A DNA stretch of 64,000 bases from NCBI RefSeq assembly GCF_024298765.1, contig NZ_CP101210.1, one strand, 5' to 3'. The position numbers are program-made. The DNA comes from Escherichia coli (GTDB taxonomy: Bacteria > Pseudomonadota > Gammaproteobacteria > Enterobacterales > Enterobacteriaceae). Below, piece after piece: positions 15,001 through 21,000 of the stretch. Within the stretch, counting starts at the first letter, position 1; each line of letters begins with the position of its first letter.

Positions 15001-18000
15001 GCGTTAAAACGTTGGACCAGAGAATTCACCTCTTTACCCAGTTCCCCTTCCATAGAGTGCCAGAACGGAATGGTCGTCACTGCCTGTGCATTCCCCATTA
15101 ACGTCAGTCCGAGCACTAGTGCTGAAGCTGTATAATGTAACGGTTTCATCGTTTATCTCTCTTGCTTGTTGTACCTGATGAGCGAATTCACACGTTTCAT
15201 GCTCGTGGGATTAAATATCATGCCCGAATTGCAGAAAAATAACTTTTTTATTACATGTGTTAGACAGTAAAGTGTTAGAAAGATGACAGAGCAGTGACGG
15301 CACAGGTGAGACGTGGTGGATTGAATTTGATCCTGCTGTTGACAGTGAAATCCGCAAGACATGTCCGGCAGTGATCGTGAGCAATGACGCAGCAAACAGG
15401 AACCTCGCTCGAGTAGTCGTCGTTCCTCTGACCAGTAACACAGAGCGAGTGTATCCAAGTGAGGCTGTTGTGACCGTAGGTGTCAGAGCAGCAAAGCGAT
15501 TGTAGAGCAGATTATGGCGGCGGATAAGTCCTGTCTCAAAACACATATTGGCTCGTTGTCCAAAGCAGATATGTTGTCTGTTGAGGACGCAATCAAGATC
15601 CATCTTGGTTTACTGCGGTAACGCCATGTGAATCTGTCGGCTACCGCCATTAGTGACGGAATTTTCTGTGGGGCAGCGTACCAATGGCATTCGGTTAAGT
15701 TCTTGCTGGAGCATCAAAAGAGTTCCAGCGCGTTCTGGGCCGTACATATTTTCGTGGGTAACACCTCCCTGGCCTTACTCGCTGAGTCATACAACTGCGA
15801 TCGATTCAGATGCCATTTTGCAATCAGCCTCTCAGAAAGAGCGCAACAGAATGATTTTAAATGTTTTCCTGTTACCCGAATCAGTAAAGACAAGTACCTC
15901 ACTACGAGAAACAAGCAGTTTTTGAAATTAAAATTTTGTTTATTTCTACTACTACCGATGAAAACGTTATTATCTTAATAATTAATGTCATTTCAGGATA
16001 TCCATGTAAGGTTAAGTAATAATATATGAGCCTGTATTTTTATTTTACATCTTTCTCACTCTGTGAATGAAAATCTTCAATAGAAAATTTGATTTGAATA
16101 ATTTATATAACTCTTCTATATTACATCAATGCCGATAGAAATCGTAAAAAGCTTCGTTTTCATAAAAATCTCTTTCAATAATATTTGTAGCTGGACCAGC
16201 CCCTTGAAACGCCAGATAGTGGATGTATCTTAAAATAAGAGACAGGCTTGGATATATGTCTGACACTGGTTCTAATTTTGAGATGACTGGAACTTTGCCG
16301 GGGCTGGAGCTTCGTAAACGTAAAACTCCTCAGGAAAAAATTGGCATTATTCAGCAGACAATGGAGCCTGGCATGGCGGTGTCACATGTGGCGCGTTTGC
16401 GTTGTATTCAGCCCTGCCTGTTGTTTAAGTGGAAAAACAATCTCTGGAAGGAAGTCTCACTGCTGTTGCTTCAGGAGAGGGTGTCGTTCCTGCCTCAGAA
16501 CTGCCTGCCGCTATAAAACAAATAAAAGAGTTACAGCTCTTGCTGGGTAAAAAACCATGGAAGTTTAGATCCTCAAAGAAGTGGTGGAGTATGCGCAATC
16601 GCGAAAATGGATAGCGCATGTGCCCTTGTTACCTTCGGACAAGGAATAGCCCCGGTAAGCCGTGTTCTGGGCGATACTCAGGCGGCAGTCCCTAAATGAA
16701 GGACTACCGTTAGTGAATGCAAAGCGCGTTTACCGGATAATGAGCGAAAATATCCTGTTGTTACATGACAAACCATCACGACTGCAGCGGGAACATAAAG
16801 GCCGAATATCGGTAAGGAAAGCGACCAGCGTTGATGTTCTGATGGCTTTGAGTTCGGTTGCGATGATGGCGAAAAAGTCCGGGTTACGTTCGCCCTGGAC
16901 TGTTGCGATCGTGAAGCTATCGACTGGGCATCCAATACGGGAGGTTACAATAAAGCGACAGTGCAGGATGTGATGTTAGGAGCGATAGAAAAACTCTTTG
17001 GCGATAAAGTACCGGAACAGTCCATCCGGTGGTTGACAGATAACGGTTCAGCGTATAGAGCGCATGAAACACGGCAGTTCGCCAGAGAGTTGGATCTGGA
17101 GCCCTGCACAACGGCAATCAGCAGCTCTCAGAGTAATGGAATGGCAGAAAGGTTAGTGAAAACGATGAAGGAAGACTACATTGCGTTCATACCGAAACCG
17201 AATGTAATAACGGCATTGCATAACCTTGCATAGGCGTTCGAGAATTACAATGAGAACCACCCGCATAGTGCGTTAGGTTATCTCTCACCACGGGAATATC
17301 GATGTCAGCGGATAACGTCACCTTAGATGTAGCAGTTGCCAAACAGTGACTCAAGGGCAGGCTTACCGCATACGCTGACACTTAGCTGATCGACAGAATA
17401 TTATTAACAGTTCATCACTGAACGCTACATAATCAGAGTTGCATAAATAAAATGTTATGTTATAACATTTTAATACCAACATATGTTTTCGAATGTATAT
17501 GAATGTAATCAGAACTGTCATTTGTACATTAATTATAGTCCCGGTGGGACTACAGGCAGCGACCAGTCATTCTTCTATGGCTAAAGATACAATCACCATT
17601 GTCGCGACAGGAAATCAGAACACGGTATTTGAAACGCCGTCGATGGTCAGTGTCGTCACGAATGACACACCGTGGAGTCAGAATGCGGTTACATCGGCCG
17701 GCATGCTGAAAGGTGTTGCCGGTCTCAGCCAGACTGGTGCAGGACGGACCAATGGGCAGACCTTTAATCTACGCGGCTATGACAAAAGCGGGGTACTTGT
17801 TCTTGTTGACGGCGTCCGCCAACTCAGTGACATGGCAAAAAGCAGTGGCACTTATCTGGATCCGGCTCTTGTCAAACGTATCGAAGTTGTCCGCGGGCCA
17901 AACTCCAGTCTGTACGGCAGTGGCGGGCTGGGAGGTGTAGTGGACTTCAGAACTGCCGATGCAGCAGATTTCCTTCCCCCCGGAGAGACAAACGGTTTAA

Positions 18001-21000
18001 GTCTGTGGGGAAATATTGCCAGTGGTGACCACAGCACAGGCTCGGGGCTCACCTGGTTCGGTAAAACCGGAAAAACAGATGCGCTCCTTTCTGTCATTAT
18101 GCGTAAAAGAGGTAATATCTATCAAAGTGATGGTGAGCGCGCACCTAACAAGGAAAAACCTGCAGCCCTGTTTGCGAAAGGCTCTGTCGGTATAACAGAC
18201 AGTAACAAAGCAGGTGCCAGCTTGCGTCTCTACCGGAATAACACCACTGAACCGGGCAATCCCACTCAGACACATGGTGACAGCGGCCTGCGTGACAGAA
18301 AAACAGTACAAAATGACGTACAGTTCTGGTACCAGTACGCTCCTGTGGATAACAGCCTCATCAATGTAAAGTCAACGTTATATCTCAGTGATATCACTAT
18401 CAAGACAAACGGTCACAACAAAACGGCAGAATGGAGAAACAACAGAACCTCCGGTGTTAATGTTGTCAACAGGAGTCATACTCTGATTTTTCCGGGAGCC
18501 CATCAGTTAAGTTATGGCGCTGAATATTACCGTCAGCAGCAGAAGCCAGAAGGCTCTGCCACACTATATCCGGAAGGAAATATTGACTTTACATCGTTGT
18601 ATTTCCAGGATGAAATGACAATGAAAAGCTACCCTGTTAACATTATCGTCGGTTCCCGCTATGACCGGTACAAGAGCTTCAATCCCCGTGCCGGAGAACT
18701 GAAAGCCGAACGCCTGTCCCCAAGGGCGGCGATTTCAGTCTCACCGACAGACTGGCTGATGATGTACGGCTCCATATCCTCTGCATTCCGAGCGCCCACA
18801 ATGGCAGAAATGTACAGGGATGATGTACATTTTTACCGCAAGGGTAAACCCAATTACTGGGTTCCTAACCTTAATCTGAAACCAGAAAATAACATCACCC
18901 GTGAGATTGGCGCAGGTATTCAACTGGATGGCCTGCTTACAGACAATGACCGGCTGCAGTTAAAAGGCGGATATTTCGGAACGGATGCCAGAAACTATAT
19001 TGCCACACGCGTGGATATGAAACGGATGCGTTCTTATTCTTATAATGTATCCCGGGCCCGTATCTGGGGATGGGATATGCAGGGAAATTACCAGTCTGAT
19101 TATGTTGACTGGGTGCTTTCTTATAACCGGACGGAAAGTATGGATGCCAGCAGCAGGGAATGGCTGGGCTCCGGCAATCCTGACACACTTATCAGTGACA
19201 TCAGCATACCTGTTGGTCATAGAGGCGTTTATGCCGGATGGCGTGCTGAACTTTCAGCATCAGCCACGCATGTGAAAAAAGGCGACTCCTATCAGGCTGG
19301 CTATGCCATACATTCCTTTTCACTGTCTTATAAGCCTGTAAGTGTTAAAGGCTTTGAGGCGTCAGTAACTCTGGATAATGCCTTCAACAAGCTTGCCATG
19401 AATGGCAAAGGTGTGCCGCTTTCAGGCCGAACTGTCAGTCTTTATACCCGTTATCAGTGGTAACCTCTCAGGAAATAAATCATGATGAAAAATACAGGCT
19501 ATATCTTAGCTCTTTGTCTGACAGCATCGGGGCATGTCCTGGCCCATGATGTCTGGATTACCGGCAAACAGGCAGAGAACAACGTTATCGCAGAGATTGG
19601 TTATGGTCATAATTTCCCCTCAAAGGGCACGATTCCTGACAGAAGGGATTTCTTTGAAACTCCCCGGCTTTATAACGGGAAAGAGACAATAACGCTGAAG
19701 CCAACATCCACGGATTATGTCTATAAAATTGAGTCTGCAGGCAACGGTAATAGCTACGTTCTGTCAACGAAAATGAAACCGGGATACTGGTCGAGAACCT
19801 CGTCAGGATGGAAGCCTGTCAGCCGGGAGGGCAGAAATGATGTGGCATACTGTGAGTTTGTGACTAAATATGCAAAATCTTTTATTCCTGGTGAACAGCA
19901 GATGCCAGCACAACTCTATCAGTATCCAATAGGGGATGAGCTTGAAATCATTCCGTTATCCGATATCAGTCGTTTCGGTGAAGATGTGAAGCTGAAAGTT
20001 CTGTATAAAACTTCCCCGCTTGCCGGAGCCACTCTGGAGCTTGACTCTGTCAGTTATCTGAAATCATCCCGCCATACTCATGCGGCAGAGCATAAACATT
20101 CGGCTCATAAAGCAGAACTTACCTTTGTAAGTAATGAGGACGGTATCATCACTGTACCCTCCCTTCATGTCGGGCAATGGCTAGCTAAAGTCAAAAATAA
20201 GAAAGTATTTCAGGACAAAAACCTGTGTGATGAAACTGTCGATGTGGCAACCTTAAGCTTCTCCCGAAATTAATAATACTATTCCTGCCCTGTAATTTAC
20301 GGGCAGGGTATATCAACCGGAAATAGCCTACTGACATCCATGTATAAAGCCACATAATTATTTTGTTGATGTATCTTACCTAATACGTAAGCGTAAAGCC
20401 AATGCCGTCTGTAACTCCTGATCCTTGCAGACTAAATGTAAGCGCTCCTTCTGTGCCGTCTTGTGGTGGTTGTCCTGTCTGGCAACAATCGCGTCCATCT
20501 ATTGATGGACACGAATGATGAATTCTCAGACAACAAAAGATATGTAAGCGGCTCGTCAGAACCGTATTGATATTTACTGAGAGCTCAGATCAACTTTCCA
20601 GGGCAACAGATCGCGTACCCGGTTTGCCGGCCAGTCCTGGATATGTTCAATGACGTAACGCAGCCACTTTTCTGGCTCCACATTGTTCAGACGGCATGTG
20701 CCGATCAGCGAGTACAACACCGCCGCATGTTCACCACCGCTGTCGGAACCCGCGAACATCCAGTTTTTCCGGCCTACGGCCACTCCCCGTAAGGCGTTCT
20801 CTGCGATGTTGTTGTCGATTTCCACCCAGCCATTACTGCAGTACACGTTCAGTGCATCCCACTGTTTCAGCAGGTATGCGAACGCTTTTGCCGTATCTGA
20901 GTGACGCGACAGTGTTTTCATCTGTTGCTGTATCCAGTCATACAGTGACTGCATCAGTGGCGCGGCTCTGGCTTTTCTTGCCGCCAGACGCTGTTCTGCT

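Follow-up and report, generated by a model that had tools for sequence, protein, structure and literature searches.

The stretch of DNA analysed here, a window of 64,000 nucleotides (64 kb) from the Escherichia coli contig NZ_CP101210.1 (assembly GCF_024298765.1), carries on its + strand two intact open reading frames (ORFs), one encoding a 656-aa TonB-dependent transporter (TBDT; 17493..19463) and the other a 263-aa periplasmic protein of the DUF4198 family (19482..20273). They lie exactly at the coordinates (17493-20273) given in an earlier note on this DNA, which had described a heme-type receptor with a histidine-rich partner and had taken the pair for an accessory iron or heme uptake system. 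Because the gap between the two genes is 18 bp and holds a Shine-Dalgarno sequence for the second gene (AGGA at 19470..19473, + strand, read off the sequence 8 nt 5' of the second ATG), they are read as one operon. The observation itself is confirmed and the interpretation placed on it is partly supported: the sequence argues, on balance, that the module is probably related to zinc and controlled by Zur, a two-gene system for zinc uptake during starvation, and that the metal named in the note is the part likely to be in error.

The promoter holds a feature that had gone unnoticed. A Zur box, AAAATGTTATGTTATAACATTTT (17449..17471, + strand), stands 21 bp 5' of the receptor start codon and agrees at 20 of its 23 positions with the gamma-proteobacterial consensus GAAATGTTATAWTATAACATTTC, which reportedly goes back to work of Panina et al. 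in 2003. When the window was scanned with this consensus at up to three mismatches the box was the sole match in the 64 kb, and shuffled sequences gave none. Scored in the same way, the proven Zur sites of E. coli K-12 reach 21/23 (znuA/znuC), 19/23 (zinT) and 17/23 (ykgM); the box in the window thus outscores those of zinT and ykgM and comes near that of znuA/znuC. It also has 15 bases in common with the ykgM site, and 16 consecutive bases (TGTTATGTTATAACAT) in common with a 50-bp probe from hlyII of strain J96 that was shifted by E. coli Zur in an electrophoretic mobility shift assay (EMSA) in vitro (PMC5916954). The E. coli-specific Zur motif TRWNAYRWTATAWYRTNWCA (Gilston), by which the Zur target pliG, a lysozyme inhibitor gene of K-12, was found (quoted in PMC6103462), is found once in the window without a mismatch, at 17453..17472. 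A candidate sigma-70 promoter (TTAACA, 18-nt spacer, CATAAT; 17404..17433, + strand) lies just 5' of the box, and its agreement at 10 of 12 positions in a consensus scan is weak evidence. The check for a Fur box that the earlier note had proposed came out negative: in the 300 bp 5' of the receptor the best match to GATAATGATAATCATTATC has mismatches at 7 of 19 positions, falls inside an insertion sequence (IS) remnant and is at background level for the window. The NikR operator GTATGA-N16-TCATAC has no match anywhere in the window. Taken together, these promoter features suggest that the operon would be bound by Zur and would respond to zinc in its expression.

The same bare two-gene unit, receptor followed by DUF4198, is found in Salmonella enterica (receptor 51% and partner 42% identical to the window proteins), in Providencia rettgeri and P. 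huaxiensis (47-48% and 40-43%), in a metagenomic enterobacterium (receptor 53-55%) and on Klebsiella plasmids (83% and 79%). The promoters of the orthologues are otherwise unalignable, and the sole conserved block is the core of the box, TGTTATGTTATAAC. In Salmonella the box agrees with the consensus at 21/23 positions and keeps the spacing of 21 bp to the ATG that is seen in the window; the core is also kept in Providencia and the metagenomic relative, and the allele carried by IncF plasmids has a box of 19/23. More distant relatives of the DUF4198 gene (34-38% identical), which are monocistronic, have boxes of the TGTTATGTTATAACA type upstream. No Fur box was found in the orthologous loci, and neither the window locus nor five orthologous contexts have hemP/S/T/U/V or chuSTUV neighbours. 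The canonical hemP-hemR-hemS-hemT-hemU-hemV locus of Citrobacter koseri carries a Fur box (15/19) and no Zur box.

Plug and TonB_dep_Rec_b-barrel domains are recognised in the receptor, which has its TonB box (DTITIVA) at residues 32-38. Among proteins of solved structure, E. coli ChuA (9DHE) and Shigella ShuA (3FHH) match it best, over its full length (E ~1e-166); identity to receptors of the ChuA/ShuA/HemR type is 42-45% over the full length, and the 41.9% identity to ChuA bears out the view of the earlier note that the two are distinct. The box by which the note had recognised a heme receptor is present. It spans residues 432-463 (18786..18881), with FRAP at 432-435 and the expected histidine at His446 (18828..18830), within DDVHFY and equivalent to ShuA His420, but in place of NPNL stands the variant VPNLNL, and other members of the clade have NPN or NPD there.

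What the note had missed in the receptor is a lysine, Lys116 (17838..17840), at the position of ShuA His86. We aligned six receptors of the clade linked to DUF4198 genes with ChuA and 14 canonical receptors of the ChuA/HemR type. Without exception, the 15 canonical receptors have the plug motif DTGHLN, in which ShuA His86 lies, and each of the six clade members has DMAKSS, GMDKSS or GMAISS in its place, so that the plug histidine is lost; the loop-7 histidine (ShuA His420) is retained in the clade. Both residues are reportedly required for heme transfer, as described by Burkhard and Wilks in 2007 for ShuA (His86/His420) and by Bracken et al. in 1999 for HemR (His128/His461). The earlier note had held that loss of the motif histidines would speak against its proposal, and here the outcome is divided, the plug histidine having gone throughout the clade and the box histidine having stayed. 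The clade forms a separate deep branch, its members being 47-93% identical to each other and 42-49% identical to the canonical receptors, which are 62-98% identical among themselves. It is marked by 58 clade-specific columns, several of which lie near the two ligand positions (T84M, H86K, N88S, N416R, S422Y and G424R in ChuA numbering). Judged by its sequence, the receptor comes from a branch that has diverged from the ChuA/HemR lineage of heme receptors and has lost one heme ligand.

The second gene (19482..20273, + strand) encodes, as the note had said, a periplasmic protein rich in histidine. It matches PF10670 with E = 8e-25 (88.6 bits against a cut-off of 34) and has a Sec-type signal peptide at residues 1-21, whose inferred cleavage between VLA and HDVW would leave His22 (19545..19547) at the N-terminus of the mature protein. 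A further histidine, His43 (19608..19610), lies in a GYGH motif, and Cys124 and Cys249 form the conserved cysteine pair that was pointed out in the paper on Zcp, the gonococcal member of the family. The histidine-rich loop covers residues 196-212 (20067..20117) and includes the tract SRHTHAAEHKHSAHK, with five histidines in 12 residues (positions 198-209). Every enterobacterial orthologue has such a loop, variable in sequence and with 4-8 histidines, and most other members of the family are without it. A comparison of its sequence with the PDB gives Zcp (E = 3e-22; 9MHI and its sister entries) as a clear relative, IsDUF4198/NikK (9GCB) as a weak one, and no other real relatives. An AlphaFold model was built on 87 homologues, gathered by exhaustive search, with a mean predicted local distance difference test score (pLDDT) of 91.3 and a predicted template modelling score (pTM) of 0.88; it resembles Zcp (TM-score 0.74-0.83) and IsDUF4198 (0.65-0.79), and nothing else is close. 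Model confidence is low in the histidine-rich loop (pLDDT 69-81), as is expected of a flexible metal-catching segment. Among the 87 homologues His22 is invariant and His43 is conserved in at least 90%, and these are the equivalents of His1 and His18 of IsDUF4198. Members of the family have been shown to bind zinc or nickel ions and not heme (PMC12663993, PMC12537917), Zcp being a Zur-regulated periplasmic zinc-binding homodimer (PMC12663993).

Both genes are under purifying selection: between the island copy and the IncF allele the ratio of nonsynonymous to synonymous substitution rates (dN/dS) is 0.12 for the receptor and 0.19 for the partner. When the operon alone (17440..20280) was used as query, it was found in 1190 of 5426 complete E. 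coli genomes (22%), and 819 of the 1243 matching places in these genomes are plasmids, so that it is more often plasmid-borne than chromosomal. In PLSDB it is present on 762 plasmids (727 from Escherichia and 30 from Klebsiella; 592 predicted to be conjugative), and the plasmid carriers are mostly of the IncF type and from clinical isolates. One example is pECO-fce, a 212-kb IncFIA/FIB/FIC plasmid (operon at 5746..8514 of stretch L018). The proteins of the plasmid allele are 97.7% (receptor) and 89.7% (partner) identical to those of the window and keep Lys116, and the intergenic gap is 6 bp as against 18 bp in the window. RefSeq names the receptor either 'TonB-dependent receptor' or 'hemoglobin/transferrin/lactoferrin family receptor', genome annotations give it as a heme/hemoglobin receptor or just as a TonB-dependent receptor, and we found no characterisation of the operon in the literature searched. 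A 'TonB-dependent heme/hemoglobin receptor' listed among the plasmid iron genes in the pRS218 paper could not be tied to the gene in the window, as the locus tags given there are inconsistent.

A model for how the two proteins might work together can be outlined from these features. According to the model, when zinc is plentiful Zn-Zur would occupy the box, which overlaps or abuts the promoter, and transcription would be blocked. When zinc is scarce, for example through the action of host calprotectin, the receptor and DUF4198 genes would be expressed. The TonB-energised barrel, which is without the heme ligand of the plug, would admit zinc or a zinc-carrying ligand to the periplasm, where the DUF4198 protein would catch the metal by its N-terminal histidine, His43 and the flexible histidine-rich loop. 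Kept in the periplasm, the metal would be at the disposal of periplasmic zinc enzymes or of ZnuA/ZinT-ZnuBC, which is encoded elsewhere in the genome and would perform the inner-membrane step. Zinc is the presumed cargo, and it would be handed from the receptor to the DUF4198 protein. Transport of zinc, free or in a complex, by the receptor itself is a tentative proposal, which we would put at somewhat below an even chance. It is likewise possible, though less likely than not, that a branch of the enterobacterial ChuA/HemR lineage has been converted to a Zur-controlled TonB-dependent importer of zinc or a zinc complex, with a histidine-rich DUF4198 protein as its dedicated catcher.

A number of observations weigh against a role in zinc uptake. 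The receptor is of the heme-receptor type by homology, as the earlier note had maintained, since it scores 414.1 bits with TIGR01785 (TonB-hemin) and so passes the cut-off of 316.85, and it keeps the loop-7 histidine, His446. No convincing cluster of histidine, cysteine, aspartate or glutamate that would mark a Zn2+ site has been gained in the clade, because only Met114, Asp151 and Asp628 are clade-specific among residues of the metal-liganding types; moreover Met114, which is invariant in the clade and lies beside Lys116, could in principle take part with His446 in Met/His ligation of heme. Orthology with ZnuD was considered and rejected, the score with NF038289 being 46.7 bits against a cut-off of 950 and confined to the plug domain, as is the match to the ZnuD structure 4RDR (E = 3e-5). 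In the partner, the residues aligned with the zinc triad of Zcp (His29, His31 and His142, positions taken from the triple-mutant entry 9MHK) are Gln30, Glu32 and Glu138; the triad is thus absent, which places the partner outside 'cluster 1' of Zcp. Zcp is itself dispensable for zinc uptake (PMC12663993), so that a catcher for imported zinc is an extrapolation. Finally, the copy on Klebsiella plasmids has a rearranged or degenerate box with separated half-sites, CGTTATAACATTACAAAATGTTAT (~5968..6000 of stretches L009/L011), and the operon may be differently regulated or constitutive there.

The receptor could instead serve as an accessory receptor for heme or hemoglobin, with the heme then handled by chuTUV elsewhere and the DUF4198 protein acting as an iron- or heme-related helper, which we consider unlikely. 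The TIGR01785 score and the full-length identity to receptors of the ChuA/ShuA/HemR type agree with this explanation, as do the retention of FRAP and His446 and the presence near the ligand positions of a clade-invariant Met114 and Tyr448. There is also precedent, in that heme receptors without the plug histidine are reportedly functional, among them Hma (with tyrosine) and PhuR (His/Tyr), and neisserial ZnuD is said to support heme use when expressed in E. coli. However, a Zur box is present and is conserved across genera where a Fur box would be looked for in vain, the plug histidine that is invariant in the 15 canonical receptors has been lost in all six members of the clade, and no heme-utilisation genes are linked; because of these findings the assignment to iron or heme is probably wrong. 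The partner, too, belongs to a family that binds metal ions through an N-terminal histidine and not heme (PMC12537917, PMC12663993).

This property of the partner would also suit a module for nickel or cobalt, in which the TBDT imports one of these metals and the DUF4198 protein acts like NikK/IsDUF4198. In IsDUF4198 the N-terminal His1 and His18 bind Ni2+ (Kd 18 nM), and their equivalents here, His22 and His43, are conserved; DUF4198 genes commonly adjoin those for TonB receptors and NikR-type regulators (PMC12537917); Zcp binds cobalt, nickel and copper as well in vitro (PMC12663993), and some Zur-regulated clusters of Pseudomonas handle cobalt (PMC11481552). Yet the regulator site in the window is a Zur box and not a NikR operator, and neither the window nor the orthologous loci have a linked energy-coupling factor (ECF) or ATP-binding cassette (ABC) transporter for nickel or cobalt, or a urease or hydrogenase context, and we regard such a module as improbable. 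It might also be argued that the two ORFs no longer serve any function and are decaying cargo of the island, left behind between IS elements when the rest of an uptake locus was lost: IS remnants lie on both flanks, no inner-membrane transporter is linked, and on the island of strain BEN2908 a pseudogene fragment of an 'iron ABC transporter permease' is found a few kb off. The intact ORFs and low dN/dS values, the retention of the two genes as a bare unit in metagenomic relatives and in Salmonella, Providencia and Klebsiella, and the presence of the operon in more than a thousand complete E. coli genomes make this very improbable indeed.

The earlier note had placed the pair on a selC island with IS elements at its flanks, and both statements hold. 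The island setting is correct because tRNA-SeC, the attachment site (35162..35256, - strand), is adjoined by a tyrosine integrase gene (~33678..34862, - strand), and yicJ/yicI follow beyond the tRNA-SeC end of the island; the operon is accessory cargo there. To its left lies a decayed transposase gene of the IS3 type (DDE; ~16223..17233, + strand) with broken ORFs, annotated as a frameshifted pseudogene in strain XDL, and to its right ISCro1 of the IS66 family (tnpC, tnpB, tnpA; 20574..23189, - strand). Between the operon and ISCro1, 11 nt past the DUF4198 stop codon, a 7-bp GC-rich hairpin with no T-run can be read off the sequence (20284..20307, + strand). It is possibly a weak terminator, although a scan for intrinsic terminators on the + strand 3' of the operon called none, this hairpin included.

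The region directly 3' of the operon (~20574..26800) consists of several adjacent or nested IS66-family elements, ISCro1 being followed by a tnpA/tnpB pair and then by another complete copy in the opposite orientation, after which come an IS3 fragment and an IS91 fragment. Between this cluster and the selC integrase is a gene (~28988..32485, + strand) for an autotransporter of ~1165 aa with an outer-membrane beta-barrel domain. On the other side of the operon, a second copy of ugpB, for the glycerol-3-phosphate binding protein, stands alone on the island without ugpAEC (13833..15149, - strand) and has near it a gene for a phytase-like esterase (~9660..11003, - strand); together with a PhoX phosphatase that is additionally present on the BEN2908 version of the island, these look like cargo for phosphate scavenging. 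The interval from ugpB to the IS remnant contains short fragments of the PemK/MazF toxin type (~15350..15620, + strand), as annotated in XDL and BEN2908; they are probably relics of a toxin-antitoxin pair. The island also has a gene for a c-type lysozyme inhibitor (~5424..5762, - strand), at which no match to the Zur box with up to three mismatches was found, the only one in the window being that at 17449..17471. A cargo block of ~25 kb, made up of phosphotransferase system (PTS)/transketolase genes, a YadA-like adhesin, the lysozyme inhibitor, ugpB and the receptor-DUF4198 pair, is found at tRNA-SeC in the window and in strain XDL, and the same block lies at tRNA-Leu (leuX) in the avian pathogenic E. 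coli (APEC) strain BEN2908.

For E. coli and its relatives, a review published in 2025 on how enteric bacteria acquire zinc names ZnuABC, ZupT, ZinT and yersiniabactin only, with no dedicated outer-membrane receptor among them (PMC12574912). If a heme receptor has indeed been converted to a zinc importer, E. coli would have in this operon its first dedicated system for zinc uptake across the outer membrane, spread through extraintestinal pathogenic E. coli (ExPEC), APEC and Klebsiella by IncF plasmids and tRNA-linked islands, and it would help these bacteria to resist zinc starvation of the calprotectin type. Should the operon prove to be regulated by zinc, catalogues of virulence genes have it under the wrong metal; it would then be a candidate for a factor in the survival of calprotectin and would offer a natural experiment in the re-tooling of a heme gate for another cargo. 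It would in addition be a genetically tractable model in E. coli for DUF4198 proteins, the first members of which were characterised only in 2025. As read from the sequence, this would correct a widespread annotation, with a possible bearing on nutritional immunity.

Each half of the module has known counterparts. TonB receptors under Zur control are known (ZnuD, ZnuK/L), as is a DUF4198 protein that binds zinc (Zcp), and the locus in the window encodes neither a ZnuD orthologue nor a protein of the Zcp type. With ChuA, ShuA and HemR (9DHE, 3FHH) the receptor shares the fold, length, TonB box, FRAP box and loop-7 histidine, but it belongs to a deep clade of its own, with lysine in place of the plug His86 and the surrounding DTGHLN rewritten, and it lies behind a Zur box rather than a Fur box and without hemP/S/T/U/V. 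ZnuD is related to heme receptors. Neisserial ZnuD/TdfJ, ZnuD of Acinetobacter baumannii and ZnuK/L of Caulobacter, which are likewise outer-membrane TBDTs behind a Zur box, provide the working analogy for the present system; unlike ZnuD, however, the receptor has no evident surface loop rich in histidine and aspartate, and its role in zinc uptake is a proposal made by analogy.

The partner shares with Zcp (NGO1049 of Neisseria gonorrhoeae; 9MHI-9MHO; PMC12663993) its family, fold, Sec signal peptide, cysteine pair and association with a Zur box. The two are ~24% identical, and where Zcp has its triad the window protein has replacements and, instead, an internal histidine-rich loop; zcp is monocistronic, whereas the partner gene is predicted to be co-transcribed with that of a TBDT. 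In being rich in histidine and without the triad it is like the uncharacterised 'cluster 2' of the Zcp paper, although its histidine tract is internal and not a C-terminal tail. IsDUF4198 of Ideonella sakaiensis (9GCB; PMC12537917) has the same fold and the same metal site of an N-terminal and a second histidine, and members of its family often have TonB receptors as neighbours, but it is 17% identical, prefers nickel, occurs in a NikR-type context and has no histidine-rich loop, while the context in the window is that of Zur. What appears to be new, as read from the sequence, is therefore the combination: a receptor of the ChuA lineage rewired to Zur, in an operon with a DUF4198 protein that carries a histidine-rich loop.

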